Positions 9,460 through 43,232 of a DNA stretch of 54,791 bases are shown one piece after another (within the stretch, counting starts at the first letter, position 1; each line of letters begins with the position of its first letter). The DNA comes from Alphaproteobacteria bacterium. Its GTDB lineage: Bacteria > Pseudomonadota > Alphaproteobacteria > JAAXGF01. Where the stretch lies: the NCBI GenBank assembly GCA_046582565.1, contig JAYGED010000198.1:1-54791 (forward strand). Reading direction: 5' to 3'. The position numbers and the translations under genes are program-made. The notes under the pieces are model-generated. The model ran no database searches. It saw nothing but the letters and a program-made list of their open reading frames with translations, and was not told where the DNA came from.

Positions 9460-9510
9460 GCCAACCCCTTCGCTTGTGCCGGGCGGGGTGGGTGCGCTAC
9501 ATAGGGCGCG

Positions 9511-13226: not shown

Positions 13227-14077
13227 AAAAGCTGCTGGTCACCGGGGCCGGCGGCTTCATCGGCCGTCCTGCGGCCGCCGCCTGTGCGGCCCTGGGCTTC
13301 GAGGTTCATGGCGTGGGGCGCGAGTTCGATCTGACCGACGGGGGCGCGCGCCGAGCGCTGATTAACGACATTCGGCCGAGCCATCTGCTCCATCTTGCCT
13401 GGGAAACCCGCCACGGCTATTTCTGGACGGCGCCGGAAAACGAACTCTGGCTCGATGCCACGGTCGACCTTGCGCGATGCTTCCAGGAGGCGGGCGGCCA
13501 GCGGGCGGTGTTTGCCGGAAGCTGCGCCGAATATGACTGGACGGCCATGGACCAGGGGGTCTGCCGCGAGAATACCACCCCCTGCCGCCCGGCGACCCTA
13601 TACGGCCAAGCCAAGCAGGCCGCCCATGACCGCATCGCCGAGAGTGGCCTGAGCTACGCCTGGGGCCGCCTGTTCCTGCTCTATGGCCCGTATGAGGCCG
13701 AGGCCCGCCTGGCGCCCTCGATCATTCGCGCAAGCCTTAAGGGCGAGGCGGCAGAGCTTAAGGAGCCCGACGCCATACGAGACTTCCTCGATGCTCGTGA
13801 CGCGGGCGCCGCCCTGGCCGCCCTGCTCGCCGACGATGTAGCGGGGCCGGTCAATATCGCGAGCGGTACGGGCATCGCCATTGCGGACCTGGCCCAGCGC
13901 CTGAGCCGCCTGGCCGGCGGCCCCGATCCGATTGCGCCTGAGAAAGCGGTGCCCGATCCGCCGCGCCTGGTCGCCGACATCTCCCGCCTCAAGCAGGAGG
14001 TCGGCTTCACTCCGGCGCGCGATCTCGACCAGGGCCTGGCCGATGCTGTTAACTGGTGGATGAATCAGACAACGTGA
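13223..14077 (+). CDS. NAD-dependent epimerase/dehydratase-family 4-reductase
   Basis: MKKLLVTGAGGFIGR Rossmann motif. Translationally coupled to the epimerase. Confidence 0.75.
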   Translation: MKKLLVTGAGGFIGRPAAAACAALGFEVHGVGREFDLTDGGARRALINDIRPSHLLHLAWETRHGYFWTAPENELWLDATVDLARCFQEAGGQRAVFAGSCAEYDWTAMDQGVCRENTTPCRPATLYGQAKQAAHDRIAESGLSYAWGRLFLLYGPYEAEARLAPSIIRASLKGEAAELKEPDAIRDFLDARDAGAALAALLADDVAGPVNIASGTGIAIADLAQRLSRLAGGPDPIAPEKAVPDPPRLVADISRLKQEVGFTPARDLDQGLADAVNWWMNQTT

Positions 14078-14087
14078 AGAGACGACC

Positions 14088-14849
14088 ATGAAGATAACCA
14101 TCGATACGGACGCCAAGACCATCGAGAGCGGCGGCGAGCAAACCGCGCTCTACAGCAAGGCGGGTTTCGAGCTGATCTCCGATCTCTGGCTCACCACCGG
14201 CTGGGGCATGCGCTATTCCTATACTTTCTCCTGGCTTGGCCGGCCGATCATCCAGCTGCCCGAGGATATGCTGCGCATCCAGGAGGTCATCTATGCGATT
14301 GCGCCCGATGTGATCATCGAATGCGGCGTCGCCCACGGCGGCTCGCTGATCTTCTATGCCAGCCTGCTCAAGGTAATCGGCAGCGGTGCGGGCCGGGTGG
14401 TCGGTGTCGATATCGACATCCGCGCGCACAACCGCAAGGCCATCGAGGAACATGCCTTATCCCCGGCCATCACCCTGATCGAAGGCAGCTCGATTGAGCC
14501 CGCCACCGTGGCAGCGGTGGCGGCCTGCGTAAAGCCTGGCGACAAGGTCCTGGTGCTGCTCGATTCGAACCACACTCGCGATCATGTGCTCGCCGAGCTG
14601 CGCCTCTATGCGCCCCTGGTCAGCGTCGGCTCCTACCTGGTCGCCGCCGACGGGGTCATGGCGGCGCTCACGGACGTTCCCGGCGGCCAGCCGTCCTGGG
14701 GGTCGGACAACCCCACCGAGGCGGCCAAAGACTTCATCGCCGAGCGCGATGATTTCATCCTCGAGACGCCGGCCTTCGACTTCAACGAGAGCGAGCTGAC
14801 CGAGCAGATCACCTATTGGCCCGGCGGCTATTTGAAACGCATTGCCTAA
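14088..14849 (+). CDS. CmcI/cephalosporin-hydroxylase-family class I methyltransferase (sugar O-methyltransferase candidate)
   Basis: SWLGRPIIQLPEDMLRIQEVIYAIAPDVIIECGVAHGGSLIFYASLL matches the CmcI-family signature as I remember it. Confidence 0.7.
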   Translation: MKITIDTDAKTIESGGEQTALYSKAGFELISDLWLTTGWGMRYSYTFSWLGRPIIQLPEDMLRIQEVIYAIAPDVIIECGVAHGGSLIFYASLLKVIGSGAGRVVGVDIDIRAHNRKAIEEHALSPAITLIEGSSIEPATVAAVAACVKPGDKVLVLLDSNHTRDHVLAELRLYAPLVSVGSYLVAADGVMAALTDVPGGQPSWGSDNPTEAAKDFIAERDDFILETPAFDFNESELTEQITYWPGGYLKRIA

Positions 14850-15652
14850 TGACAGCCCGCGTCACTATCGGCGTGCCGGTCTATAACGGGGCGGCCTCTC
14901 TCGAGCGTGCGATCGCCTCGATCGAGGCTCAGAGCCTTAACGATTTCACCGTGATCGCCGCCGATAATGCTTCGACCGACGGCAGTTGGGATATCCTGCA
15001 GGCCTGGGCTAAGCGCGACAGCCGGGTCACAATCCACCGCCACGCAGACAACATCGGCGCCCAGGCCAACTTCCGCTATCTGCTCGATGCCGCCGAGACC
15101 AGGCGGTTCCTGTGGCATGCCTGCGATGATTGGGCGAGCCCAAATTATCTCGAATGCCTCGATGCCCTGCTCGACGCCTATCCCCACTGCGCCCTGGCCT
15201 GCGGCGATGTGGTCAAGCACACGGTCGAGGGCGCAGAGAAGCGCCGCCGCTTCCCCGGTCTGGCCGGGCTATCCCGCCTGGCCCGCGCCCTCACCCTGCT
15301 CAAACGGCCCCGCGCACCGTGGATTTATGGCCTGTTCCGCACCGATGATCTGCGCCGCGCCCAGGCGGCGGCGGATCGGTTCGGCTACGCCTGGGGCGGC
15401 GACTATGTCGCTCTCATGGGGCTCATCCTGGAAGGCCGGGTCTGCGGCACCAACGACGCCGAGTTCCATTACCGCATGTCCACCCCGGCCACTCAGCCCT
15501 ACCGGCCGGTGGACCGGGCCGCCCATTGGCGCTTCTTCAGAGCCTATCTGGCGGCCAACCTCCGCGTTTTGGCGAACGCCCGAATTCCGCTCTCCCACAA
15601 AGCACTTTGCCTGCCCGTCCTGCTACGCCACGTGCTGCGCGCCATCCGCTAG
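14849..15652 (+). CDS. Family 2 glycosyltransferase
   Basis: VTIGVPVYNGAASLERAIASIEAQS..VIAADNASTDGS. ATG 14849 overlaps the preceding TAA. Confidence 0.85.
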   Translation: MTARVTIGVPVYNGAASLERAIASIEAQSLNDFTVIAADNASTDGSWDILQAWAKRDSRVTIHRHADNIGAQANFRYLLDAAETRRFLWHACDDWASPNYLECLDALLDAYPHCALACGDVVKHTVEGAEKRRRFPGLAGLSRLARALTLLKRPRAPWIYGLFRTDDLRRAQAAADRFGYAWGGDYVALMGLILEGRVCGTNDAEFHYRMSTPATQPYRPVDRAAHWRFFRAYLAANLRVLANARIPLSHKALCLPVLLRHVLRAIR

Positions 15653-31081: not shown

Positions 31082-31791
31082 GGCTGGTTGCTCCTTAAGG
31101 CGCCGCCTTCTTTCCCGTGGGGCGGTCTTTGACCGAAAATCGCTGTGCCGACCCGCACATGGCTGGCGCCGAGCGCTATGGCGACCCCGAAATCGGCGCT
31201 CATGCCCATGCTCAAGCGGTCGAGGCCATGGCGTTTTGCGATCTCGGCGAGCAGGGCAAAATGCAGCGCCGGTTCTTCGTCGATCGGCGGTATGCACATC
31301 AAGCCGACCACCGGCAGGGACAAGTCGTTGCGGCAGAGGTCAATGAAATCGTCGGCCTCGCCGGGCATGATACCGGCCTTGTTCGGCTCTTCCCCGGTAT
31401 TGATCTCAATGAAACAGGGGATTACGCGCGAAATTCGATCCATTTCAGCGGCCAGTGCGCGGGCCAGTTTCGGCCTGTCCAAGGTTTCAATCACATCGAA
31501 CAGAGCGAGGGCTTGGCGGACCTTGTTGGTCTGTAACGGCCCGACCAGGTGAAGTTCGATGTCGGGGAATTGCGCCTTGAGAGCGGGCCATTTTGCGGCG
31601 GCTTCCTGAACCCGGTTTTCACCGAATACCCGGTGGCCGCCTTCAAGCACCGGCAGGATTCGATCGCTCTGGTGGATCTTCGAAATGGCCACCAGGGTGA
31701 TATCGCCGGTGGCGCGGCCGGCCTTTTCCGCGGCGGCGCCGATTGACGCGCGGACCGCGGCGAGATTTGCCGCTACATCAACTTCCGTCAT
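31078..31791 (-). CDS. yggS: YggS-family pyridoxal-phosphate homeostasis protein
   Basis: VAISKIHQ..VFGENRVQEA..HLVGPLQTNK..LSMGMSADF. Confidence 0.9.
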   Translation of the reverse strand: MTEVDVAANLAAVRASIGAAAEKAGRATGDITLVAISKIHQSDRILPVLEGGHRVFGENRVQEAAAKWPALKAQFPDIELHLVGPLQTNKVRQALALFDVIETLDRPKLARALAAEMDRISRVIPCFIEINTGEEPNKAGIMPGEADDFIDLCRNDLSLPVVGLMCIPPIDEEPALHFALLAEIAKRHGLDRLSMGMSADFGVAIALGASHVRVGTAIFGQRPPHGKEGGALRSNQP

Positions 31792-33029
31792 GAACGAGCG
31801 AACTCGGCGACGATATAATCGACGATCGCCTGGGCGCATTCATCGACAGTGCCGCGATCCGTATCGACCACCATATCGGGGTTCTCGGGTGCCTCATAGG
31901 GCGCGGAAATGCCTGTAAAATCAGCAATTTCTCCGCTTCGGGCGCGTTTGTAGAGGCCCTTGGGATCGCGCCGCTCGCACACCGCCAGGTCGGCGTGAAT
32001 GTAGATCTCATGAAAGCGGCCCGCGCCCAGGTCGTCGGCCGCCGCACGGGCGCGGTTGCGGTCCGACAGATAGGGCGAGATGAAGGCGCTGATGATCAGA
32101 AAACCGGCGTCGGCAAATAGCGCCGCCACCTGACCGACCCGGCGAATATTCTCGGCGCGGTCGTCGGGCGAGAACCACAGATTGGCGTTCAGACCCCGGC
32201 GCATATTGTCGCCGTCGAGTACATAGGCCTGAAAATTCAGACGAAACAGCCGCTGCTCGACCTCGACGGCGAGGGTCGATTTACCCGATCCGGAAAGGCC
32301 GGTGAACCACACCACACCGCCGCGATGACCGTTGCGAGCGGCGCGCGTCTCGGCCGAGATACCGTGTTCAACGGCGGTAACATTGGTGCTTTTTACATCA
32401 ATCAGCCCGCGCTGATCCGGATAGCCCTCCATGTCGATGACGCCCACTGCAACGGTGACCTCCCCCTCAAGCAATGTGAAGTGGCCGGTGGCCGCCACGG
32501 TGGTAAATTCATCGAGAGCAAGCAGTTCGGACGCTCTGACGATCAGTTCTCCCGTCTCGTCCGGATGAATTTTGACGGGTATTTCGCGGCCCTGGAGGCA
32601 GAGCCCGAAGCTCCGGTTTTCGGGGCGCGTTGACCCGTTGAGCCAAACCACCCTGGCGCGGAACACATCGGTTTCCTGGGGAAGATCGTCGAGATGGCTG
32701 GCCAGGTCGCCGGCCCCGACGGCAAGGTGCTGATCGAGGGTGACAGCGACTGAGCCGCCCTGCTCCTCGAGATCGATCACCCTGGCAGTGAGGTGCGACG
32801 GGGAAAACATAATCTCATCGCCAACCGCCAGACGGCCACACAACAGCCGGCCCGTCACTTCTCGGCCGGTGGTTGACTCGATCGCCAAGCGAAACGGTAA
32901 ATCCGCCGCAATTTCCGCCATGGCGCCGGTGAACAGGGCTTCAAAGCGCGCCCTATCCTCCGGATCGCGAATGATCAGGCGATCAGGGAGAGACTCCAAC
33001 AGGTTCGGGCCGGCGACAACAGTTTTCAT
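31788..33029 (-). CDS. cysC: Adenylylsulfate (APS) kinase fused to CysN/NodQ-like beta-barrel domains II-III; no GTPase domain
   Basis: C-terminus VVWFTGLSGSGKSTLA..VLDGDNMRRGLN..ISPY.. is CysC. The N-terminal 200 aa (FRLAIES..GRLAVGDEIMFSPS..FRARVVWL..TGHFTLLE..TVAVGVI) resemble EF-Tu-type domains II/III of CysN. ATG 33029. Confidence 0.8.
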   Translation of the reverse strand: MKTVVAGPNLLESLPDRLIIRDPEDRARFEALFTGAMAEIAADLPFRLAIESTTGREVTGRLLCGRLAVGDEIMFSPSHLTARVIDLEEQGGSVAVTLDQHLAVGAGDLASHLDDLPQETDVFRARVVWLNGSTRPENRSFGLCLQGREIPVKIHPDETGELIVRASELLALDEFTTVAATGHFTLLEGEVTVAVGVIDMEGYPDQRGLIDVKSTNVTAVEHGISAETRAARNGHRGGVVWFTGLSGSGKSTLAVEVEQRLFRLNFQAYVLDGDNMRRGLNANLWFSPDDRAENIRRVGQVAALFADAGFLIISAFISPYLSDRNRARAAADDLGAGRFHEIYIHADLAVCERRDPKGLYKRARSGEIADFTGISAPYEAPENPDMVVDTDRGTVDECAQAIVDYIVAEFARS

Positions 33030-33146
33030 GGCTTGGACATGTGATGACAAGAATGGCGAGCACTGTACGGGATATCGTCCGCATTTATACGGTGACGTGC
33101 TATAGCTTGCCCATTGAAATCTGGTCAAATAGAGGGGAAAGCATCC

Positions 33147-33824
33147 GTGGATCAAGAGTTCGTCTATATCGGTCCGCGAAAAATTGCGGTCTGGCCTGAA
33201 AACCAGCCGATTAAACCCATCGTTACGCCGATAATGACCACCCGGTTCGGCGATGCCGATCAGTATCATGACGGGCTGATATCAAAAATTCTCAAGGTGG
33301 AACAAGAGCTTCGCATATCTTCTCCGCCCGCTACCCGCTGTCTCGGCGGGCAAAAAATCCACAAGGCCATCCATGAGAAATGGAACTGTCCCGAGCTTGA
33401 TCTGGTAAAAGCGCGGGCCATCGCCTTGTTCAAGCGGACTCTCAATGCCAAGCAGGCCCATATCGACGGCTTCTGGATAAACATCTACCGGCAATGGGAA
33501 TCCGTCGGTCCCCATTGTCATCGCCGCGCCATGGCGAGCATGGTCTATTGTGTCGATAACGGCGACGAGGACCCGGACTGCCCCTTGAGCGGCCGTTTCT
33601 CCTTCATCGATCCGCGTATCGAAGCCTGCTGCCAGCTTGAGCCCGGCCATATGACCCACCCACTGATGCCCGAATTGACGGCGGGCACCATGCTGATCTG
33701 GCCGGGCAATCTGCTGCATGCGGTGTCGGCCTACGCCGGCACCAAGCCGAGAATCACCATCGCCTGGAACATCAATGATCGTGAACTGCCCGGCTCTTTG
33801 GGCGACGCCTTCAAGTCAGCTTAA
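33147..33824 (+). CDS. 2OG-Fe(II) oxygenase-like protein (TIGR02466 / 2OG-FeII_Oxy_5-like); start uncertain (TTG 33114, GTG 33147)
   Basis: GPHCHRRAMASMVYC..GRFSFIDPR..GTMLIWPGNLLHAVS..RITIAWNI pattern. GAGGGG lies upstream of GTG 33147. Confidence 0.55.
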   Translation: MDQEFVYIGPRKIAVWPENQPIKPIVTPIMTTRFGDADQYHDGLISKILKVEQELRISSPPATRCLGGQKIHKAIHEKWNCPELDLVKARAIALFKRTLNAKQAHIDGFWINIYRQWESVGPHCHRRAMASMVYCVDNGDEDPDCPLSGRFSFIDPRIEACCQLEPGHMTHPLMPELTAGTMLIWPGNLLHAVSAYAGTKPRITIAWNINDRELPGSLGDAFKSA

Positions 33825-33836
33825 AATACCAGTGCG

Positions 33837-34688
33837 CTAGAATCTGGGGCCGCCCTTATCGTTGAGATAGCCGTGTTCGGCCATGACCTCGCTATGGCGT
33901 TCGATCATTCCCTCGACCTGCTCCGCCGTCAATTCCTTGCGCCAGGCGCCGGTCTTACCCTTACGAAAGAAAACCCGATTGTCGATCGGCACGGCCTCGA
34001 CGAAACCGTCTTCTTTCTCTTGATTGGCCAACACCTTGAATGAGCTAAATTTTATTGCTTTTTTCAATCGCGGTGTTTCCAGCGGCAGGCCGAGAAATTT
34101 GATCAGGGCGCGCCATGTCTTCTCGGGCTGGATGGTCATATCCTCATAGCGGATGGTATGGAGCTTGAGCCCTTCGGCCTGAGTCCAGCTTCGCACATGG
34201 GTGCTCCAGCTGCCGAGATATTGATACACCTGATTGCCGTGCAGCGGGGCTGTGGTTTCTTCGGAATCCATGGCGGCAATCGCTCGATCATAGGAAATAC
34301 CGTAGTGGTGCGCATAGGACACCGCCACATCCAAAGGATTTCTGACGACATATATGGCGCCCGCCGTCGCGTCAGGGGTGATTGTTGGAATATTGTCGAG
34401 GACGGATATGGCGTTATGGGTCTTGACGAATACCGTGTCCGGGCTTGATTGGGCGAACATCTCATGCACCTTGGGGCGCAGGGCCTGAATTTCTTCGGCG
34501 GTCATTGCGTCGACCGGCCCGCCGGCGACCTGCTCAAAGGGCGCCGCGATGCCGTCGCCGAGGATGAATTGCGGCAGATCATCGATCGGCATCGGCTCGG
34601 CGGGGTTTTTCAGATAGTTGGCGATAAACGCCCTAAGCCAGGTATTTCCTGACTTTGGATAAGACGCCATCCAGAGAATACCTGGCAT
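33837..34688 (-). CDS. Cytosolic-SULT-type (Sulfotransfer_1-like) sulfotransferase
   Basis: SYPKSGNTWLR (5'-PSB), VRNPLDVAVSY (3'-PB) and FRKGKTGAWRKELT closely mirror the animal SULT motifs YPKSGTTW / RNPKDVAVSYY / RKGxxGDWK. Confidence 0.8.
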   Translation of the reverse strand: MPGILWMASYPKSGNTWLRAFIANYLKNPAEPMPIDDLPQFILGDGIAAPFEQVAGGPVDAMTAEEIQALRPKVHEMFAQSSPDTVFVKTHNAISVLDNIPTITPDATAGAIYVVRNPLDVAVSYAHHYGISYDRAIAAMDSEETTAPLHGNQVYQYLGSWSTHVRSWTQAEGLKLHTIRYEDMTIQPEKTWRALIKFLGLPLETPRLKKAIKFSSFKVLANQEKEDGFVEAVPIDNRVFFRKGKTGAWRKELTAEQVEGMIERHSEVMAEHGYLNDKGGPRF

Positions 34689-34818
34689 TGCAAACCTCCG
34701 AGCTAACGGGACAAGGGCAACAAACGGCGATCCCGAGCCGTCGATTTAAGGCGCAAGATTCGTTTCATGCTTGTGAGAATTGCTTTTTATCCCAGCTTGG
34801 GACGGCCCGCAACAAAAT

Positions 34819-34844
34819 GGGGGCGGGAAATTAATCCCGCCCCC
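34819..34844 (-). terminator. Hairpin terminator downstream of porin 1
   Basis: GGGGGCGGGA-aattaa-TCCCGCCCCC stem-loop 33 nt after the porin stop. Only a weak T-tract follows. Confidence 0.55.
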
Positions 34845-34876
34845 AAATCGAAAACTTCTATTACGTGAAACGTACG

Positions 34877-36007
34877 TTAGAAGCCTGCATTGATGCCGAT
34901 GGCAACAGCAACACCGTCGGTGTCGCCGGCGCTGCCGGCAGTATCGTCTTCGCGGTCGATGGAGAGGAACGTAATGTGAGTCCTAAGCCCTGGCCCAAGC
35001 GTGTAGCTTGCGGCGACGGCGAAGTACTCGTTCTCTACATCACCTGCATTGGCCACTATGCCTTCTTCCTGACCATGGAAGTAGGTCATGCTGAAGCCAA
35101 AGGGTCCGGTCGAGTAGCTCGCACCGATGTTGTACGAAGAGCCTTCGCTGGACTGTAAGTTGCCGGCTTGCGCATGGCCCTCGGCGACATTGGCGAAACT
35201 AGCGCCGACACTGATGCCGCCGACGCCGACGCCGACACCACCGTTGAACGCCAGATAATCGTCGAACCCAGCCGTCTCGACCGTAGACGGCGCATTCGCA
35301 CCCGCCACACCGGCGGTGACTTCAACGCTGACGTCATTCCAACCACCGGAATAGCTGAGACCGAGGTCCCAAGCGTTGGTGTAGGTAGTGGACTCAGTAG
35401 CCAGACCGGGGTTCTCACCGCCCGTTGACGACGCCAGGGGAGACCAACTTACGGTCAGCTGGAAGCCCTCGAAGCGCGGCGTGAAGTAGGTCAGCTTCTG
35501 ATCGTCGTTCGAAGCGTCGAGGACCGTCGAGTTGGCCGGGCTGCGGAAGGCGCCGCCCACGCCCACGCCGCCGGCGCCGGCGTTGGCCACGAAGTTACTG
35601 GTCCAACCGGAGTTGATCCCCACGCCGACGTTCGGCGCGTCGGTGTTCCAGCCGTAGCTGTAACGACCGGAGTTGATAGCGCCGATGCGCAGCGAACCGA
35701 AACCACCGGCGAGAACCAGATAGGCTTGGTCAATCTGATCGCCCTGCTGCCCGCCTTCGAGCTCGATGCGGCCGCCAATCTTGAGGCCATTGTCGAGTTC
35801 GCCATTCATCTTGAAATAAACTTCGGCGTTATTATAGACAACCGCCTCATCGGTATCAGCAGTTAATGCGCCGTCGGAATCTGTGAAGCCGATAATCTGA
35901 TTGTAGTAGCCACCGAGCTCATAGTGGAGAGGCTCGGCTGCCTGTACTGCGCCTGCGGCAAGCCCCACAGCTGCCAAGGCCGTCGTACCGTAAAGATACT
36001 TTTTCAT
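34877..36007 (-). CDS. Outer-membrane porin, paralogue 1
   Basis: Signal peptide MKKYLYGTTALAAVGLAAGAVQA, alternating beta-strand pattern and C-terminal ..GINAGF. Highly similar to the 37953-39080 product. Confidence 0.85.
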   Translation of the reverse strand: MKKYLYGTTALAAVGLAAGAVQAAEPLHYELGGYYNQIIGFTDSDGALTADTDEAVVYNNAEVYFKMNGELDNGLKIGGRIELEGGQQGDQIDQAYLVLAGGFGSLRIGAINSGRYSYGWNTDAPNVGVGINSGWTSNFVANAGAGGVGVGGAFRSPANSTVLDASNDDQKLTYFTPRFEGFQLTVSWSPLASSTGGENPGLATESTTYTNAWDLGLSYSGGWNDVSVEVTAGVAGANAPSTVETAGFDDYLAFNGGVGVGVGGISVGASFANVAEGHAQAGNLQSSEGSSYNIGASYSTGPFGFSMTYFHGQEEGIVANAGDVENEYFAVAASYTLGPGLRTHITFLSIDREDDTAGSAGDTDGVAVAIGINAGF

Positions 36008-36170
36008 GTGATCACCCAAACTATAGTTGGTTCCTAAACTTAGTGAAGCCATGACCCGTTATCGCCTTAGATATCGAGACTGACCCCCATCCCCATCCTC
36101 ATGACAGAGCGTGGAGGAAATAAAACCGCCCAAATCCATCAGCGTCAAGGGAATACCGGCCTTTAATGTC

Positions 36171-36205
36171 GCAAAAAATATACACTGTGGCTTTTTAACC
36201 ACAGG
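36171..36205 (-). terminator. Rho-independent terminator after the TPR-oxygenase gene
   Basis: On the minus strand, cctgtggtt-aaaaag-ccacagtg is followed by tatatttttt. Confidence 0.6.
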
Positions 36206-36237
36206 CCCTGATAGCAACGGTCAGGGTGGGTTTTGCT

Positions 36238-37827
36238 TCAACCGCCCCGTTGGCCGAACAACATGGTGACATTCATGCGCCGATTTGCAAAGCCGTCCTT
36301 AAACTTCACCGGATGCGATTTGTGGTACAGATTCGAGTGAAACAGCACGGCGCGATTATCGCCGTACGGAATGGTCACGGTTTTGGCGTCGCTGAGAAAC
36401 TCAGCAACCTCCCGTTGGATCTCCGGGCTGTATTTTTGATTGTTGTAGCGCTCCCAATCCAAATCCATGGGTTGTTCCTTGACATAGACCACCAGGCCGC
36501 CGGCATCCGCGCTCAGGTTGGCGTCGTCGGGGGTTATCCAGAAATTGAAGGTCACCGCCCCGTCGTCCGTATGCTCGGCTACACCCTCGGAATGGTTGTT
36601 GTAGCGGTAGACCCACATGTTACGCAAGGCGTGGCCGCCGAGCACCCGGGGCAGGGATTGCTGGAGTTCCTCGGCCATCTGATAGAGCAGATCGCAGTTG
36701 AAGCCCAGCTTGTTGCTGGAGCTTACATAGCGATCACCGGTGAAATTGAAGAAGATCGTCGATTCCAGACAAAATTCGCGCAAAGAGCGCAGGGCTTCCG
36801 GGGTGAGAAAATCGTCGAAGGCGGTCACCGACACCGCAGACGACAGATACTCGTCCTCGATGGCGGGGAAGTCGAGTCCCTGGTTGATCGCCCGGCCCGC
36901 CAGGCGCGGCGCTTCGGAGTAATGCACGACTCGGTCGTAGAAAGCGCCGATGCGCTGCGCCTGACCGGGGGTCAGCAGCACGGCGGTCTCGGGCGTCGGG
37001 TTTTCGTACAGCTCGATCAGGACCGACTGGTACCGCTCCGTCATGGCCTCGAAGGACGGGTCGATACGGCCTTTATCGATGAGATACTGGAGCTGATCGA
37101 TGCAGTCGCCGAGCTTGAAGATCGAGGCCCTGAGCGGTTCGCCGGCTGGCGCGGCTGAGACGCCCTCGGCGGCGTCGAACGACTCGGCGTTCCACCAGGG
37201 TCCGCCGTGTCGCAGGCGCAAATGCCCCTCGAAGACAGCCTGAGCCTCCTCATATCGGCCGAGGTAACGCAATAGACTGCCCAGATTATTCATTGCCTCG
37301 CCATAGTCGGGGCGAAGCTCAAGGGCCTTCTCGAAGGCCGTGACCGCCTCATCCAGACGGCCCAGCGGCCGCAGCACATTGCCCAGGTTGTAATGCACCT
37401 CGGCGTAATCGGGCTTGAGGTCGAGCGCGCGGCCATAGCTCGCCGCGGCTTCATCCAGCCTGCCCAGGCTTTGGAATACGGCGCCGAGGTTGCTGTGGGC
37501 GTCGACATAGTCGGGGGCGATGACGAGGGCCTTGGAAATGTATTTCACGGCAAGATCGTTATTGCCCGTTTGATGAGCGACCAGACCGAGCAGCTGCAAG
37601 GCGATGGGCTGGTTGGGCTGGGATTGCAATATTTGCTTGTAGAGGCCCTCCGCCTCGGACAAACGGCCCGCCGCATGGAGCCGCAGCGCCTGGTCCATGG
37701 CTTGCTGGATATGCGGCGGAGGCTGCCCTGAAGAGGATTGTTCAGGCTTCTTATTCCTGGCTGCCTTCTCGGATAATTTCCGCTCACGCCGCTTTTCGGC
37801 CCGGTTCATAACTGCACTCAACCCCAC
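36238..37827 (-). CDS. TPR-repeat protein fused to a 2OG-Fe(II) oxygenase-like (P4H-type) C-terminal domain
   Basis: N-terminal half carries tandem TPRs (..AEGLYKQILQSQPNQPIALQLLGL.., ..AAASYGRALDLKPDYAEVHYNLGNVL..). C-terminus has HxD (AEHTDDG), GGLVVY, LFHSNLYHKSHPV and RRMNVTMLF. Confidence 0.65.
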   Translation of the reverse strand: MGLSAVMNRAEKRRERKLSEKAARNKKPEQSSSGQPPPHIQQAMDQALRLHAAGRLSEAEGLYKQILQSQPNQPIALQLLGLVAHQTGNNDLAVKYISKALVIAPDYVDAHSNLGAVFQSLGRLDEAAASYGRALDLKPDYAEVHYNLGNVLRPLGRLDEAVTAFEKALELRPDYGEAMNNLGSLLRYLGRYEEAQAVFEGHLRLRHGGPWWNAESFDAAEGVSAAPAGEPLRASIFKLGDCIDQLQYLIDKGRIDPSFEAMTERYQSVLIELYENPTPETAVLLTPGQAQRIGAFYDRVVHYSEAPRLAGRAINQGLDFPAIEDEYLSSAVSVTAFDDFLTPEALRSLREFCLESTIFFNFTGDRYVSSSNKLGFNCDLLYQMAEELQQSLPRVLGGHALRNMWVYRYNNHSEGVAEHTDDGAVTFNFWITPDDANLSADAGGLVVYVKEQPMDLDWERYNNQKYSPEIQREVAEFLSDAKTVTIPYGDNRAVLFHSNLYHKSHPVKFKDGFANRRMNVTMLFGQRGG

Positions 37828-37891
37828 CCATTAAACATATTCGGTGCGGCCGCATAATAGCCTTAGCTTGGTTGGCGCGGGGGCAAAAAAA

Positions 37892-37913
37892 GGGCGGGAA
37901 ATAAATCCCGCCC
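37892..37913 (-). terminator. Rho-independent terminator after porin 2
   Basis: On the minus strand, GGGCGGGA-tttatt-TCCCGCCC is followed by TTTTTTT. Confidence 0.75.
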
Positions 37914-37952
37914 CAATCAGTTCAGGAACCTTACTATTCGTGCATAACGACC

Positions 37953-39080
37953 TTAGAAGCCGGCATGGATACCGAGGAGAACGGCTCTCGCATCGGTGTC
38001 GCCGGCGCCGCCGGCAAGATCGTCTTCGCGGTCGCCGGCAAAGAATGTCAGGCTGGTCTTAAGCCCTGGCCCTAACGTGTAGGCCGCGGCGGCGGCGAAG
38101 TACTGGTTCTCTTCATCGCCTGTGTTGGCCTTCGGGCCTTCTTCCCGGCCGTTGAAGTAGGTCAGGCTGAAACCCCAGGGTCCGGTCGAGTAGCTGGCGC
38201 CGATGTTGTACGATGCCCCTTCGCTGGACTCTGTGAAGGCGCCGTTCGCATGGCCCTCGGTGACATTGGCGAAGGAAGCGGCGACACTGATGCCGCCGAA
38301 GCCGAAGCCGACTCCGCCGTTGAACGCCAAGTAATCGTCAAACCCATCCCTCTCGGCCGCGGTCGGTGCCTCCGCACCGGCCACACCGGCCGTGACTTCG
38401 ACGCTGACGTCATTCCAGCCACCTGAATAGCTGAGACCGAGATCCCAGGCGTTGGTGTAGGAAAGGGCCTCGGCCACCAGACCGGTGTTCTCGCCACCGG
38501 TGGAGATCGCCAACGGTGACCAGCTCGCGGTCAACTGGAAGCCGTTGAAGCGCGGCGTGAAGTAGGTCAGCTTCTGATCGTCGTTGGACGCATCGATGAC
38601 CGTTGAGTTGGCCGGGCTACGGAAGGAGTCGCCAACACCGCCGGGGGCGTTGGTCATCCAGTTACTGGTCCAGCCGGAGTTGATCGGCACGCCGACATTC
38701 GGCGCGTCGGTGTTCCAGCCGTAGCTGTAACGGCCGGAGTTGATGGCGCCGATGCGCAGCTCACCGAAACCACCGGCGAGACTGAGATAGACCTGATCGA
38801 GCTGATCGCCCTGGTTCTGGCCTTCAAGCTCAAAGCGGCCGCCAATCTTGAGGCCGTTGTCGAGTTCGCCCTTCATTTTGAAGTAAACTTCGGAGTTCTG
38901 ATAAACGACAGCCTCATCAGTGCCGGCCGCAGCCGCGCCCTCATTATCGGTGAAACCGAAGAACTGTGTGTAGAATCCGCCAATATCCAAATGTATCGCC
39001 GAACCACCGGACGCGGCTGCGGGACCGGCGGCAAGCCCTACAGCCGCTAGGGCCGTGGTGCCGAGAAGATATTTTTTCAT
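37953..39080 (-). CDS. Outer-membrane porin, paralogue 2
   Basis: MKKYLLGTTALAAVGLAAGPAAA signal peptide and C-terminal ..GIHAGF. Long identical blocks shared with paralogue 1 (FKMxGELDNGLKIGGR, GAINSGRYSYGWNTDAPNVG). Confidence 0.85.
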   Translation of the reverse strand: MKKYLLGTTALAAVGLAAGPAAASGGSAIHLDIGGFYTQFFGFTDNEGAAAAGTDEAVVYQNSEVYFKMKGELDNGLKIGGRFELEGQNQGDQLDQVYLSLAGGFGELRIGAINSGRYSYGWNTDAPNVGVPINSGWTSNWMTNAPGGVGDSFRSPANSTVIDASNDDQKLTYFTPRFNGFQLTASWSPLAISTGGENTGLVAEALSYTNAWDLGLSYSGGWNDVSVEVTAGVAGAEAPTAAERDGFDDYLAFNGGVGFGFGGISVAASFANVTEGHANGAFTESSEGASYNIGASYSTGPWGFSLTYFNGREEGPKANTGDEENQYFAAAAAYTLGPGLKTSLTFFAGDREDDLAGGAGDTDARAVLLGIHAGF

Positions 39081-39136
39081 GCGATCACCCAATCTCATTA
39101 AGGGGCTGTCCTAGATCTCTATCTCTTGTTAGCCAG

Positions 39137-39274
39137 TTAGACCCATCGTTTCAGTTGTCTCAAGAGCTGCTTTGGCGAGCCTTCGTGGAAGCGCCATTCA
39201 CACTCTTTGAGGAACAACTGGAAGTGGTGCTTGGGAACGCCGTTGAACTTTCGCAAATGCCGTTTCGCCCAGCT
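39137..39274 (-). mobile_element. IS1595-family (ISXO2-like) transposase C-terminal remnant
   Basis: SWAKRHLRKFNGVPKHHFQLFLKECEWRFHEGSPKQLLRQL matches the conserved C-terminus (FWSxAKRRLxKFxGxxxxxFxLxLKECEFRFN). No N-terminal part and no inverted repeats are visible. Confidence 0.65.
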
Positions 39275-39465
39275 GCATGATAGCCTTTGCTTGGTTGGCG
39301 CGGGGGCAAAAAAGGGGCGGGAAATAAATCCCGCCCCAACCAGTTTAGGAACCGTACTGTTAGTGTAAAACCACCTTAGAAACCGGCGTGGATACCGAGG
39401 AGAACGGCTCTCGCGTCGATGTCGCCGGCGCCGCCGGCAAGATCGTCTTCGCGGCCGCTGGCAAA
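39275..39465. repeat. 191-bp duplicate of 37852-38042 (porin 3' end plus terminator)
   Basis: My by-eye alignment shows high identity across the terminator hairpin (39314-39336) and the last 29 porin codons. Confidence 0.85.
39376..39465 (-). pseudogene. Porin C-terminal fragment (29 codons plus stop)
   Basis: Minus-strand translation FASGREDDLAGGAGDIDARAVLLGIHAGF*, compared with the porin 2 end FAGDREDDLAGGAGDTDARAVLLGIHAGF*. Confidence 0.8.
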
Positions 39466-39528
39466 TTGCCATTCCCGCGGCGGCTGAATCGAAGTAGGAT
39501 TTCTCTACACTGGGAGCTTATCTGGGAC

Positions 39529-41412
39529 ATGTCGGATCGAGTGACCGCCGACCTTAGGGCGGCGATGGCGGAGGGCCACGCGCATCATATAGCCGGCCGG
39601 TTTCAAGAGGCCGAAGCGATTTACCGTAAGGTGCTCGCGGTCGAGCCTAACCACCCGGATGCCCTGCATCTGCTCGGTATGATCGCCATGCCGTCGGGAA
39701 ATTATGCGCTCGTGGCGGAGCTTATCGGCAAGGCCATCGTCGCGAATCCGCGCGTCCCGGCCTATCATAATAACCTGGGCGTTGCCCTCAAGGAACTGGG
39801 CAGGCTGAAGGAGGCGGTGGCGGCCTATCGTCAGGCGCTTTCGTTGAACCCGGACTATGCCGAGGCCTACAACAACCTCGGTAATGCGCTCAGCGGCCTG
39901 GGCCGGAGGGAAGACGCGGTGGAGGCCTACAACAAAACCCTGGCGTTGCGGCCCGACTATGCCGAAGCGCATAACAACCTGGGAAACGCCCTCAAGGAAC
40001 TGGGACTCACGGAAGAAGCCGCCGCCAGCTATGGCAGGGCCCTGGTCATTGCACCCAACTATGTGGCGGCGTACAGCAATTTGGGTGTCGCCCTTAAGGA
40101 ACAGGGCAAGCTGGAGGAGGCGGTAGCGGCCTATCGCCAAGCCCTGGCTATCGCGCCCGATTATGCCGAGGCGCTGTATAACCTTTGTGAGCTGTTTGAG
40201 AAAACCAACCGCACCGAAGATCTCCGCGAGGCGGTCAACAGCGCCCGGCAACACTGCCCCGGGGATCCACGCTTCGCGCTCAGAGAAGCGCAGCTCCTGG
40301 CGCGGGATAGCGATTACGCGGCGGCACGGGCAGTGCTTGAGGCTGCCGGAGACGATCTCGCCGACGACGGCTATCTTGCCGCCCGGACGACTCTGCTCGG
40401 GGAGCTGTGCGACAGGCTGGGTGATGCCCAGGCGGCATTCGACTACTTCACCCAGGGCAACCGCCGGGCCGCACTCACCGCCGAGGCAAAACGCAGCGAC
40501 GGGCGGGCTTACCAGGCGCGAATCGATGCCTTGGCAACGCATTTCACGGCGGACTGGGTCGCCGGGTGGTCAAAGGCTGCCGGGTGGTCAAAAACTGATA
40601 GCGAAGACGACCGGGCCGATCCGGTGTTTCTGGTGGGCTTCCCGCGCTCCGGCACCACCTTGCTGGACACTATACTGAGCAGCCACCGCGCGATTACCGT
40701 GGTCGAGGAAATACCCGCCGTGCGAAATTTGCGCGTTGCCGTCGAGCAGCTTCCCGGAGGCTATCCGGACGCCTTGTCGGCGCTCGGCGCGGCCGAACTG
40801 GCGGCCCTGCGCAAGGTCTATTTCGCAGCGTTGGACAAGCATCTCGAACCGCAGGACCCATCCACCATCATCGTCGACAAACTGCCGCTGAACAGCATTG
40901 AAGCGGGCCTGATTCAGCGCATTTTCCCCAGCGCCCGCTTTCTGTTCGCCCAGCGCCATCCCTGTGACTGCGTGCTGAGCTGCTTCATGCAGAGCTTTGA
41001 GATCAATGACGCCATGGTCAATTTCCTCGACCTCGAGGACGCGGCGCGCCTGTATGACAAGGTCATGGCCCTGTGGCTGCAGTATCAGGCGGTTCTGCCC
41101 CTGGCGGTCCATACTCTGCGCTACGAAAGCCTCATCGAAGGGCTCGAGGAAACCCTCACGCCGCTGCTTGACTTCCTCGGCCTGGACTGGGACGACGGCA
41201 TCAAGAGCTACGCCGAGACCGCACAAGCCCGAAACATTATCAACACGCCGAGCTACAATCAGGTGACGCAGCCTCTCTACACCCGGTCTCGGGGCCGCTG
41301 GGAACGCTACCGCGAGCCGATGCAGCCGGCTCTGCCGCTTCTGCTGCCCTGGGCCCGGCGTTTCGGTTATGATGACCCGCAGCAATCATCGTCCTTTGGC
41401 ATAAGCCTATGA
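39529..41412 (+). CDS. TPR-repeat / sulfotransferase (Sulfotransfer_3-like) fusion protein
   Basis: About 7 TPRs (AYNNLGNAL.., AHNNLGNALKELG..), then VFLVGFPRSGTTLLDTIL (5'-PSB) and QRHPCDCVLSCF (3'-PB). The track ORF from 39388 reads through the porin fragment. Confidence 0.8.
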   Translation: MSDRVTADLRAAMAEGHAHHIAGRFQEAEAIYRKVLAVEPNHPDALHLLGMIAMPSGNYALVAELIGKAIVANPRVPAYHNNLGVALKELGRLKEAVAAYRQALSLNPDYAEAYNNLGNALSGLGRREDAVEAYNKTLALRPDYAEAHNNLGNALKELGLTEEAAASYGRALVIAPNYVAAYSNLGVALKEQGKLEEAVAAYRQALAIAPDYAEALYNLCELFEKTNRTEDLREAVNSARQHCPGDPRFALREAQLLARDSDYAAARAVLEAAGDDLADDGYLAARTTLLGELCDRLGDAQAAFDYFTQGNRRAALTAEAKRSDGRAYQARIDALATHFTADWVAGWSKAAGWSKTDSEDDRADPVFLVGFPRSGTTLLDTILSSHRAITVVEEIPAVRNLRVAVEQLPGGYPDALSALGAAELAALRKVYFAALDKHLEPQDPSTIIVDKLPLNSIEAGLIQRIFPSARFLFAQRHPCDCVLSCFMQSFEINDAMVNFLDLEDAARLYDKVMALWLQYQAVLPLAVHTLRYESLIEGLEETLTPLLDFLGLDWDDGIKSYAETAQARNIINTPSYNQVTQPLYTRSRGRWERYREPMQPALPLLLPWARRFGYDDPQQSSSFGISL

Positions 41413-41431
41413 CCTTTAAGAAAGAAACACC

Positions 41432-42547
41432 GTGGCATCGCCCGCCGCGTTGAACTTCAACCAGGCGATGGACGAAGCGCGCCGCCGGCAATTGGCCGGC
41501 GATCTCGCGGGCGCCGGGACGCTCTATCGACAACTGCTGAGCGCCGAGCCTAACCAGCCCGACGCCCTCACCCTGCTGGCCTCGATCGCCTATCAATCCG
41601 ATGAAGCGGGGCAAGCGGACCAAATGGTCGAGCAGGCGATCGCCGAATACCGCCGCCGGCTGTCGATAACCCCCAACCACGACACCATGCGCGCCGCCCT
41701 GGCCAATCTTCTTCTGGCGCGGGACCGTAGCGCCGTGGCCGAAGCGGTGATCGGCAAGGCAGCCCTTGGGTTACGCCCGATTCGCAGCTCCGCGGACGAG
41801 TTCGAAGCGCGCCGCCGCCACGGCCAGGACAAGGCTCTGCCGCCGATCCTGATCAACGCCCTGCCCAAATCGGCAAGCGAAAGTATCTGGAACAAGCTGG
41901 CCAATGGCCTGAATATAGCCCAAGCTCATGTTTCGATTGGACTGTTCCCCGATTGCATGGCCGTCCCCGCGCGGCTGCGGGCGCTTGGCCAGGGCGGCGT
42001 CAGCGCCAAGGAACATATGCCGGCAACCAGCCATAACCTGAACAGCCTCGCCGAGTCGGGGGTCGAGCGGGTGGTGGTCCATATACGCGACCCACGCCAG
42101 TCTCTGCTGTCCTGGGCGCATTTCCTGGAGAGCGACGTGAGCAAGCGCCTGCTGGCGCCGATCTGGCGCAAAACCACGCCGAGCGCCGGGTTTTTCCGCG
42201 AACCCTTCCCTACTCAGATCGATTGGCATATCGATAATTATCTGCCCATCGTCATCCGGTTCATCGAACAATGGGTGGCGGTTCGCGATGATGAGTCTGC
42301 AAGAGTTTCAGTGTGTTTCATGACGTTCGAAGAATTCCGAACCGATCCGTCCGCTTACTTTGAGCGGTTTTTAGAGTTTTACACCATCGACCGCGGGCTG
42401 TTCGCCCCGGAGGCCGAGGCCGAGGTGGTGCATCTCCGCAAGGGCGCCCTCGACGAGTGGCGCGAGTCCTTTACGGCGGCGCAATCCGAACGCGCTTGGA
42501 GCCTGATTCCCGCTGCCCTGGCTGATGAATTCGGATGGCAATCCTAG
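41432..42547 (+). CDS. TPR / divergent sulfotransferase-like fusion protein; start GTG 41432 or ATG 41468
   Basis: N-terminal TPRs (AGTLYRQLLSAEPNQPDALTLLASIAY), then INALPKSASESIW and HIRDPRQSLLSW, which resemble the PSB/PB motifs. Confidence 0.6.
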   Translation: MASPAALNFNQAMDEARRRQLAGDLAGAGTLYRQLLSAEPNQPDALTLLASIAYQSDEAGQADQMVEQAIAEYRRRLSITPNHDTMRAALANLLLARDRSAVAEAVIGKAALGLRPIRSSADEFEARRRHGQDKALPPILINALPKSASESIWNKLANGLNIAQAHVSIGLFPDCMAVPARLRALGQGGVSAKEHMPATSHNLNSLAESGVERVVVHIRDPRQSLLSWAHFLESDVSKRLLAPIWRKTTPSAGFFREPFPTQIDWHIDNYLPIVIRFIEQWVAVRDDESARVSVCFMTFEEFRTDPSAYFERFLEFYTIDRGLFAPEAEAEVVHLRKGALDEWRESFTAAQSERAWSLIPAALADEFGWQS

Positions 42548-42650
42548 AGCTGGCCGTCTGGACGAAATAGGCCGAATATTCTATACTGACCGCCTTCTCT
42601 TTCAGATCATACCAGTCCCGGTTGTGGCAGACCGGGAAAGGGGGGACGCG

Positions 42651-43232
42651 ATGCAAGGATTTTCTCGGATATTTTCCAGGCGCCGGACCGGCAGATTGAC
42701 GGTTAACCGGGCGGTGGTGGTGGCTGGCGCGGCTGTGATGCTGCTTGCTTCCTGCGCCCCCATTGAGGGCCTCGAATACGATAGCCCGATGACCAAAAGC
42801 GAGTATCGTCGGAGTAAAACGGTCGGCGCGGAGGGCGGAATTTTCTCCGGCTCGGGTCTGTCTTTCTTCGATGACGGTGAACAGAACAAAAACGCGTCGG
42901 GCTCGCCGATCCCGGTCAATAGTTTCCTGTGGCGGGCCACCCTGGACACCCTGTCCTTCATGCCGCTGGCATCAGCGGACCCGTTCGGCGGCGTCATCAT
43001 CACTGATTGGTTCGCGCCGCCTGAGACGATCGACGAGCGCTTTAAGATGACGGTCTATATTTTGAGCCGCAGCCTGCGTTCTGATGGGTTGAAAGTGGCG
43101 GTTTTCCGCCAGACCCGCGATGAATTCGGAAACTGGGTCGACGGCGAGGTGACCGAGGGAACGGCGCGCCAGCTTGAAGACGGTATCCTGTCACGCGCCC
43201 GCGAACTTCGCGTCGCCGGCCTGGCGGAATAA
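42651..43232 (+). CDS. DUF3576-family lipoprotein
   Basis: Lipobox LLASC. FLWRATLDTLSFMPLASADPFGGVIITDW. Confidence 0.65.
   Translation: MQGFSRIFSRRRTGRLTVNRAVVVAGAAVMLLASCAPIEGLEYDSPMTKSEYRRSKTVGAEGGIFSGSGLSFFDDGEQNKNASGSPIPVNSFLWRATLDTLSFMPLASADPFGGVIITDWFAPPETIDERFKMTVYILSRSLRSDGLKVAVFRQTRDEFGNWVDGEVTEGTARQLEDGILSRARELRVAGLAE

Follow-up and report, generated by a model that had tools for sequence, protein, structure and literature searches.

The stretch analyzed here (contig JAYGED010000198.1 of assembly GCA_046582565.1, from an alphaproteobacterium of the JAAXGF01 lineage), referred to as the window, comprises 54,791 nucleotides of origin-proximal core chromosome carrying lptFG and yggS, then DUF3576, leuS, lptE, holA, parBA, gidBA and mnmE. 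Between yggS and DUF3576 lies an islet (31800–42500) whose G+C content is 0.55–0.62, compared with 0.63–0.68 in the flanking core genes; the lower G+C fits a variable, possibly horizontally supplied region. Within this islet, three genes on the minus strand follow one another in the order porin 1, a gene for a tetratricopeptide repeat (TPR) protein with a predicted C-terminal Fe(II)/2-oxoglutarate (2OG) oxygenase domain, and porin 2 (Table 1). This order, with the enzyme gene between two porin copies on one strand, had been described in an earlier reading made from the sequence alone (the sequence-only reading) and was confirmed by the gene coordinates and by a metagenome contig (L090) that is colinear with the window at 99.2% identity over 9.5 kb. 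Contigs of eight marine metagenomes tile the porin-oxygenase-porin region at even depth, and the layout is no assembly artefact.

A near-identical database protein (P0001) contains 523 residues, the same length as the TPR-oxygenase translated from its ATG. The TPR array was matched by TPR_1 and TPR_2 at expectation values (E) of 1e-28 to 1e-30, with helices running from residue 32 to residue 201 in the structural model. For the C-terminal 324 residues, Pfam returned sub-threshold matches only (2OG-FeII_Oxy_3, E 0.0035, 18.7 bits against a cut-off of 27 bits; PhyH, E 0.0042), NCBIfam contained no model matching the catalytic domain, and sequence searches of the PDB with this domain, either as a single sequence or as a 40-sequence profile, gave nothing meaningful; a profile that included the TPRs was swamped by TPR proteins. 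AlphaFold2 models were confident, with a predicted local distance difference test (pLDDT) of 94.1 and a predicted template modeling score (pTM) of 0.92 for the catalytic domain, built from a 64-sequence alignment, and a pLDDT of 92.7 and pTM of 0.90 for the full-length protein. With the catalytic-domain model, Foldseek retrieved 439 PDB chains (E ≤ 1e-3), the best of which were BesD/Hal enzymes, Pseudomonas putida prolyl 4-hydroxylase (P4H), Tpa1 and PHD2. The top hits had E of ~1e-7, template modeling scores (TM) to target of 0.55–0.67 and 10%–17% identity, and the top 50, all at probability 1.00, were 2OG oxygenases except for two chains of a trypanosomal RNA-editing complex. The domain also had 229 viral hits, mostly annotated as 2OG oxygenases. 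These results bear out the fusion of TPRs to a 2OG oxygenase that had been read from the sequence.

In the model, the domain contains the double-stranded β-helix (jelly-roll) core that characterizes the Fe(II)/2OG oxygenase superfamily. The 2-His-1-carboxylate triad, on which the sequence-only reading had made its assignment depend, is predicted to consist of H413, D415 and H496, conserved in 64/64, 60/64 and 64/64 relatives, respectively. R511, the basic residue predicted to bind the C5-carboxylate of 2OG, is invariant (64/64 and 40/40 sequences), and all four residues are retained in 64/64 viral relatives. The HxD motif lies in the loop after strand 395–403, the distal His within strand 494–498 and the Arg just before strand 512–518. 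R511 follows the distal His by 15 residues; in PHD2, PhyH and AspH, the corresponding Arg or other basic residue is found ~9–11 residues past this His. The model thus identifies the middle gene as encoding a TPR and Fe(II)/2OG-oxygenase fusion with triad H413-x-D415...H496 and 2OG-binding R511, and catalysis would depend on Fe(II), 2OG and O2. Because the N-terminus is basic and disordered without a hydrophobic signal peptide, the enzyme is probably cytoplasmic, in contrast to the porins, which are Sec-exported. Comparison with the orthologue in L086 gave 0.16 nonsynonymous substitutions per site (dN) and 0.535 synonymous substitutions per site (dS); the resulting dN/dS of ~0.3 argues that the gene is functional. 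At 37214–37514, within the TPR-coding region, metagenome contig depth rises more than 10-fold (130–670, compared with 11–40), most likely due to cross-mapping from other TPR genes rather than to extra copies, since this region is consensus-like.

A full HMMER scan over 1.84 billion representatives (clusters at 50% identity) gave 1,920 matches at E ≤ 1e-3 and 631 at E ≤ 1e-30, distributed over Alpha- and Gammaproteobacteria, cyanobacteria and other phyla. In these proteins the oxygenase domain is invariably C-terminal, behind 150–370 residues, and databases name them only "tetratricopeptide repeat protein", "PilF" or "TadD". The family is new and unannotated by current domain libraries, and no paper on it, on TPR-sulfotransferases in Alphaproteobacteria or on porin hydroxylation was found in the literature searched. 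Several metagenome-assembled genomes (MAGs) hold two copies (L023, L069/L070, L032/L061, L034/L065, L025/L074, L033/L080, L073/L075); in L023, the paralogues (9134–10933 and ~13100–15061) are in the same islet, flanking DUF3576 and a porin on either side. A sub-clade is distinguished by its metal-binding motif: the window protein reads H-T-D-D-G, whereas 9 of 141 motif-bearing sequences read H-[TN]-G-D-G, with the Asp one position on, three residues past the His (P0063, P0064, P0065, P0116, P0128, P0130, P0137, P0143 and P0210; locus L017, a Nostoc MAG). HxG is the mark of Fe/2OG halogenases. The window protein lacks the HxG/A of halogenases of the SyrB2/BesD/WelO5 type, and in the family HxG is confined to this sub-clade.

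Relatives of the catalytic core are also encoded by 69 low-GC marine viral contigs (IMG/VR, L142–L210). These proteins, of 290–330 residues, are 35%–42% identical to the core. One of them (L203, 4797–5798) belongs to a T7-like replication module, its gene being flanked by those for phage endonuclease I and class II ribonucleotide reductase, and cultured phages gave only one match, at 31% identity. In work that also covered dioxygenase clusters of cyanophages, a TPR-fused classical 2OG dioxygenase family has been noted in cyanophage Syn9 (Iyer et al., 2010, PMC2938197). Unlike that family and the window protein, the marine phage 2OG oxygenases found here are without TPRs.

Among solved structures, the nearest two-domain analogue is human AspH, which has the same order of an N-terminal TPR array followed by a C-terminal 2OG oxygenase and ranked first in the PDB search with the full-length model (E 1e-10 over ~525 columns). 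The two proteins are 11%–12% identical and superimpose with TM of 0.29/0.35 and a root mean square deviation (rmsd) of ~17 Å, so the architecture is common to both but the domain packing differs. The TPR domain of AspH helps hold its protein substrate. AspH resides in the lumen of the endoplasmic reticulum, whereas the window protein is bacterial and presumably cytoplasmic, and the iron site of AspH is an unusual, two-ligand one, unlike the classical HxD...H of the window protein. The oxygenase domain gave no Pfam match to the AspH family (PF05118) at E up to 10 and thus does not belong to it; separate small PF05118 proteins adjoin family members in L031 and L105.

The same β-helix, HxD...H and Arg on the last core strand are found in enzymes of the PHD/P4H type, including PHD2, P. 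putida PPHD, which acts on EF-Tu, Tpa1/OGFOD1 and collagen P4H (Foldseek E ~1e-7, TM to target 0.58–0.67, 13%–17% identity). An additional helical N-terminal region of ~100–130 residues in the window domain is absent from these enzymes (TM to query 0.39–0.47). The description of the domain as P4H-like in the sequence-only reading therefore holds at the level of the fold, but not at that of the Pfam model for this type (PF13640), the cut-off of which was not reached. In collagen P4H and P3H, too, the catalytic domain is accompanied by a TPR-like domain that binds peptides (PMC9676403). The best single structural match of the catalytic domain was the group BesD/HalA/HalB/HalD (E 1e-7, TM to target 0.61). 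These enzymes are 10%–14% identical to the domain, act on free amino acids and contain no TPRs, and the HTD of the window protein is of the hydroxylase type. The TPR array is of the same type as those of OGT, SPINDLY and MamA (rmsd 1.5–2.6 Å, 26%–30% identity; profile E 1e-103 to human OGT). OGT, SPINDLY and TPR-GT41 proteins follow the same logic, in which a TPR superhelix feeds a catalytic domain, but the catalytic domain in the window is an oxygenase and not a glycosyltransferase.

Both flanking genes encode general porins by the Porin_4 model (PF13609; porin 1, E 1.4e-40; porin 2, E 1.2e-39; scores of 137 and 140 bits against a cut-off of 27 bits), and both products have, as read from the sequence, a signal-like N-terminus and a terminal Phe; channel function is predicted. 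They are 75% identical in amino acid sequence, and their DNAs are 79% identical over 1227 nt (37883–39095 compared with 34809–36022). Homology begins ~15 nt 5′ of each ATG, which explains the similar leader ttgggtgatcNcATG noted earlier, and extends slightly beyond the hairpin; the terminator is therefore part of the duplicated unit, as had been suspected. The sequence-only reading had also taken the duplication to be recent, which is refuted by the amino acid identity of 75%, a dS of 0.51 between porins 1 and 2, a longest identical DNA run of 39 nt and the presence of a porin-2-like gene in a relative (L087). Identity in 60-nt windows varies from 52% to 93%. In L087, a TPR gene is followed by a porin gene and the DNA is collinear with the window at 80%. 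The L087 porin is 82% identical to porin 2 and 78% identical to porin 1 in amino acid sequence, its dS from porin 2 is 0.58 (0.5–0.6 for the TPR genes of these organisms), and by dN it is nearly equidistant from both window porins (0.113 and 0.127, a small margin). This suggests, from sequence distances, that porins 1 and 2 split at or before the divergence from the L087 species. In L092 and L118, this locus has porins in direct tandem, with no gene inserted.

A third, truncated porin copy and a piece of an IS1595-family insertion sequence (IS), both missed earlier, are located upstream of porin 1. The hairpin motif GGGCGGGATTTATTTCCCGCCC occurs three times in the window (0 expected), and its third occurrence, with a folding energy of −21.7 kcal/mol, is accounted for by the truncated copy. 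The porin remnant is 91% identical, ungapped over 194 nt, to 37849–38042 at the 3′ end of porin 1, and is also present in L090. On the plus strand, the listed ORF start at 39388 is an artefact, the frame there running across the complementary strand of the remnant; the TPR-sulfotransferase encoded there probably starts at ATG 39529. The transposase fragment is 67%–80% identical to the C-termini of annotated IS1595 and ISEc75 transposases in plasmid records (tblastn, E down to 9e-14), had no match in a Pfam scan and is present as a single copy in the window. With no more than the last ~44 codons left, it is a remnant and not an active element.

When the window was compared with metagenome contigs of the same species (L089, L090, L091), porin 2 showed 2.5–4.8 differences per 100 nt and DUF3576 3.1; the values were 0.45 for the oxygenase gene and 0.27 for porin 1 (against L090).

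A hairpin was found after each of the three genes, as the sequence-only reading had stated; those of porin 1 (−19.3 kcal/mol, z −3.8) and porin 2 (−29.2 kcal/mol, z −4.8) are stronger than that of the oxygenase gene (−13.4 kcal/mol, z −2.5). RNA contigs with 95%–97% likeness were present in 8/8 marine metatranscriptomes and cover only ~34845–36101, corresponding to porin 2, at depths up to ~300. The 5′ ends of these contigs are at 36101, 36086 and 36085, with one running straight into adaptor sequence, and the abundant RNA stops at 34845; all of these boundaries are ends of assembled contigs rather than mapped transcript ends. A 1.2-kb contig (L089) spans 36072–34865. A TTGACG-N17-TTTTAT sequence at 36148–36120 is a putative promoter of porin 2. 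In the same eight metatranscriptomes, the oxygenase gene was covered by a single shallow contig (depth 3) and no contigs of porin 1 RNA were detected. Only ~57 nt separate the IS remnant from the porin 1 ATG, with a strong terminator upstream, and no sigma-70-like site was predicted in this interval. An Rfam scan of the leaders and intergenic regions revealed no structured RNA at E ≤ 0.1. Because a hairpin terminator follows each gene and the RNA contigs are confined to porin 2, the genes do not qualify as an operon and appear to be separate transcription units. Judged by RNA, porin 2 is the main porin in the sea, expression of the oxygenase is weak and that of porin 1 is not detectable; of the outer-membrane proteins that had been called abundant, only porin 2 is so at the RNA level.

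Table 1. Positions of the three central genes, their predicted functional elements and the other features of the islet
Feature	Position	Strand	Remarks
Porin 1	37953..39080	−	375 aa from MKKYL; Porin_4; Sec signal MKKYLLGTTALAAVGLAAGPAAA; C-terminal Phe
TPR-fused Fe(II)/2OG oxygenase (predicted)	36238..37809	−	523 aa from ATG 37809; 529 aa from GTG 37827
TPR array of oxygenase	37213..37710	−	~five repeats, ten helices, residues 32–201
Catalytic domain of oxygenase (predicted)	36241..37212	−	Helical N-terminal part and double-stranded β-helix core (~36903–36247)
Catalytic codons (predicted)	H413 36573–36571; D415 36567–36565; H496 36324–36322; R511 36279–36277	−	
Porin 2	34877..36007	−	376 aa; Porin_4; abundantly transcribed, strain-variable copy
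Porin 1 intrinsic terminator	37891..37914	−	GGGGCGGGATTTATTTCCCGCCCT then T run
Terminator-like hairpin of oxygenase gene	36185..36204	−	U-rich tail
Porin 2 intrinsic terminator	34818..34845	−	
Putative sigma-70-type promoter of porin 2	36120..36148	−	TTGACG, 17-nt spacer, TTTTAT; from sequence reading
Third porin copy, remnant	39272..39465	−	Last 29 codons, terminator 39337–39314, ~40 nt downstream
IS1595-family transposase gene remnant	~39137..39270	−	C-terminal ~44 codons only
TPR-fused sulfotransferase, TPST-like catalytic domain	39529..41412	+	Sulfotransfer_3 E 2.7e-34 and TPRs
Second, shorter TPR protein, weak sulfotransferase-like C-terminus	41432..42547	+	TPR_19 E 8e-7
Stand-alone cytosolic-type sulfotransferase, immediately downstream of porin 2	33837..34688	−	Sulfotransfer_1 E 2e-31
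Small putative 2OG-Fe(II) oxygenase, 2OG-FeII_Oxy_5/TIGR02466 type	33114..33824	+	PF13759 E 2.4e-10
Adenosine 5′-phosphosulfate (APS) kinase fused to CysN-like β-barrel domains	31788..33269	−	APS_kinase E 4e-61; GTP-eEF1A_C E 3e-5
DUF3576 protein, conserved anchor gene facing porin locus	42525..43232	+	PF12100 E 7e-41

The other islet genes were compared with 24 loci from a metagenome scan seeded with the porins. DUF3576 adjoins a porin homologue in 14/24 of these loci, a sulfotransferase is present in 11/24 and an APS kinase in 3/24. Adjacency of DUF3576 and a porin was seen in L095, L099, L103, L105, L106, L107, L110 and L112, and in the further loci L114, L120, L132, L135, L136, L139 and L141. 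The pairing is widely conserved in marine Alphaproteobacteria, with a cytosolic-type sulfotransferase often, and an APS kinase sometimes, after the porin; no description of a linkage between porins and sulfotransferases was found in the literature searched. In L110 the order is leuS, DUF3576, TPR-sulfotransferase, porin, sulfotransferase, APS kinase and yggS, and to this backbone the window adds extra porin copies, the small Oxy_5 oxygenase, the IS remnant, the TPR-oxygenase and a further TPR-sulfotransferase-like gene. The real start of DUF3576 is probably later than listed.

The TPR-sulfotransferase matched human TPST2 and TPST1 best among PDB sequences (E 6e-11 to 5e-9), ahead of the CurM sulfotransferase, and its product may be a TPR-guided protein sulfotransferase. 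Its TPR array and that of the oxygenase are collinear and 49% identical over 160 residues. The shorter TPR protein encoded next to it gave a Sulfotransfer_1 match below the cut-off (E 3e-4), shares 41% identity with the oxygenase in the first TPR and has a 57%-identical homologue in L141. TPST1/2 and Xanthomonas RaxST, which acts on RaxX, are relevant to the TPR-sulfotransferase and not to the oxygenase. In Xanthomonas, raxST is accompanied by raxPQ for the supply of 3′-phosphoadenosine 5′-phosphosulfate (PAPS), to which the APS kinase of the islet may be likened. TPST and RaxST contain no TPRs, unlike the window enzyme, and neither a RaxX-like peptide nor type I secretion genes were seen at the window locus. 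Sulfation of RaxX has been described (PMC4646787).

The best PDB matches of the stand-alone sulfotransferase were SULT1 enzymes, Teg12/14 and StaL. Homologues with 40%–69% identity lie 1–2 genes from a porin in L107, L110, L112, L092, L120 and L105, and one is in the same locus as a porin in L093. The small Oxy_5 oxygenase matched TIGR02466 below the cut-off and has homologues near TPR-oxygenase genes in L021, L025, L028, L031 and L106. APS kinase homologues come after a porin and a sulfotransferase in L110 and L112; the window enzyme, which would supply PAPS, lacks a GTPase domain. In its ORF, the initial ~80 codons overlap the opposite Oxy_5 gene and look spurious, and the start is probably near 33029.

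Conservation of the arrangement beyond the strain, which the sequence-only reading had treated as a test of its proposal, was examined in 92 loci of the oxygenase family. The exact porin-oxygenase-porin order occurs only in the same species (L090), and looser forms exist, with the oxygenase followed by a porin in L087 and a porin followed by the oxygenase in L105, L037 and L023. A porin is nearby in 8/92 loci, and all of those with sufficient flank share one syntenic region; porin and TPR-oxygenase are together in the window/L090, L087, L105, L037, L022, L023 and L106. The closest relatives (L086, L001, L002–4, L088, L005) have other neighbors, namely arginase, an M20-like gene, sat/apr, an opp transporter and bipA; the M20-like gene precedes the oxygenase gene in these relatives and is absent from the window. 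A porin-DUF3576 pair without an oxygenase is found in at least 11 loci, which indicates that the porin is native to the islet spot. Enzyme genes come and go around this native porin. In a rough neighbor-joining tree, islet-resident oxygenases fall into three clades, and members of the window's clade are mostly elsewhere in genomes.

Over the 92 loci, sulfotransferases are present near the oxygenase gene in 9, 2OG-FeII_Oxy_5 proteins in 6 and AspH-like proteins in 5. The order TPR-oxygenase, AspH-like (PF05118), sulfotransferase was observed in L105, L023 (second paralogue) and L035; the TPR-oxygenase is followed by a TPR-sulfotransferase in L053 and by a sulfotransferase in L031. Genes for TPR-GT41 proteins adjoin TPR-oxygenase genes in L013, L028 and L031, of which L028 and L031 are gammaproteobacterial and without a porin. 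A local jackhmmer search for GT41 domains was contaminated by TPR similarity and its result was discarded. Clustering of the neighbors in 85 loci as candidates for a family-wide operon partner gave no dominant one, with varied genes such as glutamine-synthetase-like, ABC ATPase, LysR, S15 peptidase, formylglutamate amidohydrolase, MscS, redoxin, PPK2 and AspRS. Neither the window nor the 141 cellular loci contained a flagellin-like sequence that might serve as a nearby substrate.

Our preferred explanation, to which we assign a probability of about 60%, is that the middle gene encodes a TPR-guided Fe/2OG hydroxylase of a new family, with a protein or peptide as the probable substrate, and that it is an accessory gene of the islet that came to lie between old porin copies by duplication and IS-associated rearrangement. 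The TPR superhelix would capture an extended segment of a protein or peptide and present this segment to the iron center, which, using O2 and 2OG, would hydroxylate a side chain, as AspH does. As to history, the islet between DUF3576/leuS and yggS contains, in many marine Alphaproteobacteria, the porin of the lineage, at least one sulfotransferase and often an APS kinase. In the window lineage the porin has been copied at least three times, with one copy truncated beside the IS1595 remnant and porin 1 deprived of its upstream region by that remnant, and the oxygenase gene has come to lie between the two surviving, long-diverged copies, in an order of rearrangements that we infer. Its position would then reflect history and not an operon. 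The sulfotransferases and small oxygenases that recur next to genes of the family are more likely functional partners of the oxygenase than the porins are.

Four points weigh against this explanation. The top structural hits of the catalytic domain include hydroxylases and halogenases of free amino acids, so that a protein substrate is a candidate only. Contig depth is a poor measure of expression, and absent RNA contigs do not prove silence. The association with a set of partner enzymes is weak in frequency, since more than 80 of the 92 family loci are without any of the proposed partner genes. Finally, three clades of the family are found in the same porin-bearing islet in different lineages. 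This could mean either that genes of this kind tend to accumulate there or that the oxygenase is functionally tied to some component of the islet, possibly the porin.

In a rival explanation, the oxygenase would act not on a folded protein but on a small molecule, such as a free amino acid or a small peptide, with the TPRs serving as a scaffold or for oligomerization. The best structural matches are enzymes acting on free lysine or ornithine (BesD, HalA/B/D) together with a hydroxylase homologue, neighbors elsewhere are frequently enzymes of amino acids or peptides (arginase, the M20-like protein, S15 X-Pro dipeptidyl-peptidase, formylglutamate amidohydrolase and a glutamine-synthetase-like protein), the adjacent stand-alone sulfotransferase resembles the small-molecule SULTs, Teg and StaL, and the phage relatives contain no TPRs. 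However, structural E-values to protein hydroxylases of the P4H/PHD type equal those to BesD, and the TPR array is of the OGT/SPINDLY type, a binder of extended polypeptides, with a homologous array in the TPST-like sulfotransferase, an enzyme of the protein-modifying type. The pTM of 0.90 also suggests a fixed arrangement of the TPRs relative to the catalytic domain, as in AspH. We therefore consider a small-molecule substrate unlikely, if worth keeping in view.

The pairing that the sequence-only reading had drawn between enzyme and porins would require that the oxygenase, alone or with the islet sulfotransferases, modifies the porins or the DUF3576 protein, with loop residues hydroxylated on the unfolded precursor in the cytoplasm, ahead of Sec export, and the gene order reflecting linkage of enzyme and substrate. 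Modification before export has a precedent in the Haemophilus GT41 enzyme HMW1C, which glycosylates an exported adhesin in the cytoplasm. The seven instances of co-occurrence listed above would fit such a linkage, as would the residence of paralogues from three family clades in the porin-bearing islet of different lineages and the frequent location of sulfotransferase genes close to the porin. Porin 2 and DUF3576 are moreover the strain-variable genes of the islet, as expected of surface proteins under selection. Against this, porin 2 RNA forms a separate unit and the expression levels of the two genes are far apart, 84/92 family loci have no porin nearby, and the gammaproteobacterial loci L028, L031 and L053 contain the same partner enzymes with no porin in up to 10 kb of flank. 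Among the closest relatives, all but L087 have other neighbors, the porin-DUF3576 pairs without an oxygenase indicate that the porin is native to this spot, the enzyme lacks a signal peptide, and no report of hydroxylated bacterial porins was found in the literature searched. Functional coupling of the oxygenase to the porins is unsupported, and we regard the porins or DUF3576 as doubtful substrates.

Equally doubtful, and more speculative in scope, is that enzymes of the islet modify a protein in two steps, with hydroxylation preparing a side chain for O-sulfation. The oxygenase, elsewhere also the AspH-like or Oxy_5 proteins, would add a hydroxyl group that the TPR-guided or stand-alone sulfotransferase would sulfate with PAPS from the APS kinase, the enzymes being directed by their homologous TPRs to one substrate, possibly an envelope protein of the islet (the major porin or the DUF3576 protein) before export; the HxG branch would then comprise TPR-guided protein halogenases. 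If so, the cell would gain a tunable, strain-variable surface charge.

The gene might instead be a passenger of the porin rearrangements that is decaying or non-catalytic, its product a TPR scaffold with an inactive oxygenase fold. This would fit its very low RNA signal in environmental samples and its position among IS and gene remnants but is highly improbable given an intact ORF that is 98.8% identical in a second population, the dN/dS of ~0.3, metal and 2OG ligands conserved among 64 cellular (D415, 60/64) and 64 viral relatives, and the confident structural model.

To our knowledge, protein hydroxylation in bacteria is limited to a few cases, namely EF-Tu, ribosomal proteins and little else. 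With the explanation we prefer, the family offers a concrete candidate for a new protein hydroxylase with built-in substrate capture, a bacterial counterpart of AspH. The shared TPR module and the recurrence near sulfotransferases, AspH-like proteins, Oxy_5 proteins and TPR-GT41 proteins point to a set of TPR-guided modification enzymes. Gene order within a rearranged islet of this kind should not be taken as a pairing of enzyme and substrate.

The locus can also be viewed as an old tandem porin array whose members differ: one dominates in RNA and varies highly among strains, another is intact yet undetected in RNA, and the third is truncated. A natural deletion of the oxygenase gene by recombination between the porins was considered from one contig that joins 38316 to 35218 (run X1) and was rejected; the junction was not reproduced elsewhere, and the contig, with a depth of 3.8 compared with ~11, may be an assembly path through shared words. 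Among the variant bases of porin 2 in the same-species contigs, 29%–39% are equal to the base in porin 1. Judged from the sequences, the RNA-silent porin 1 might donate sequence to porin 2 by gene conversion.

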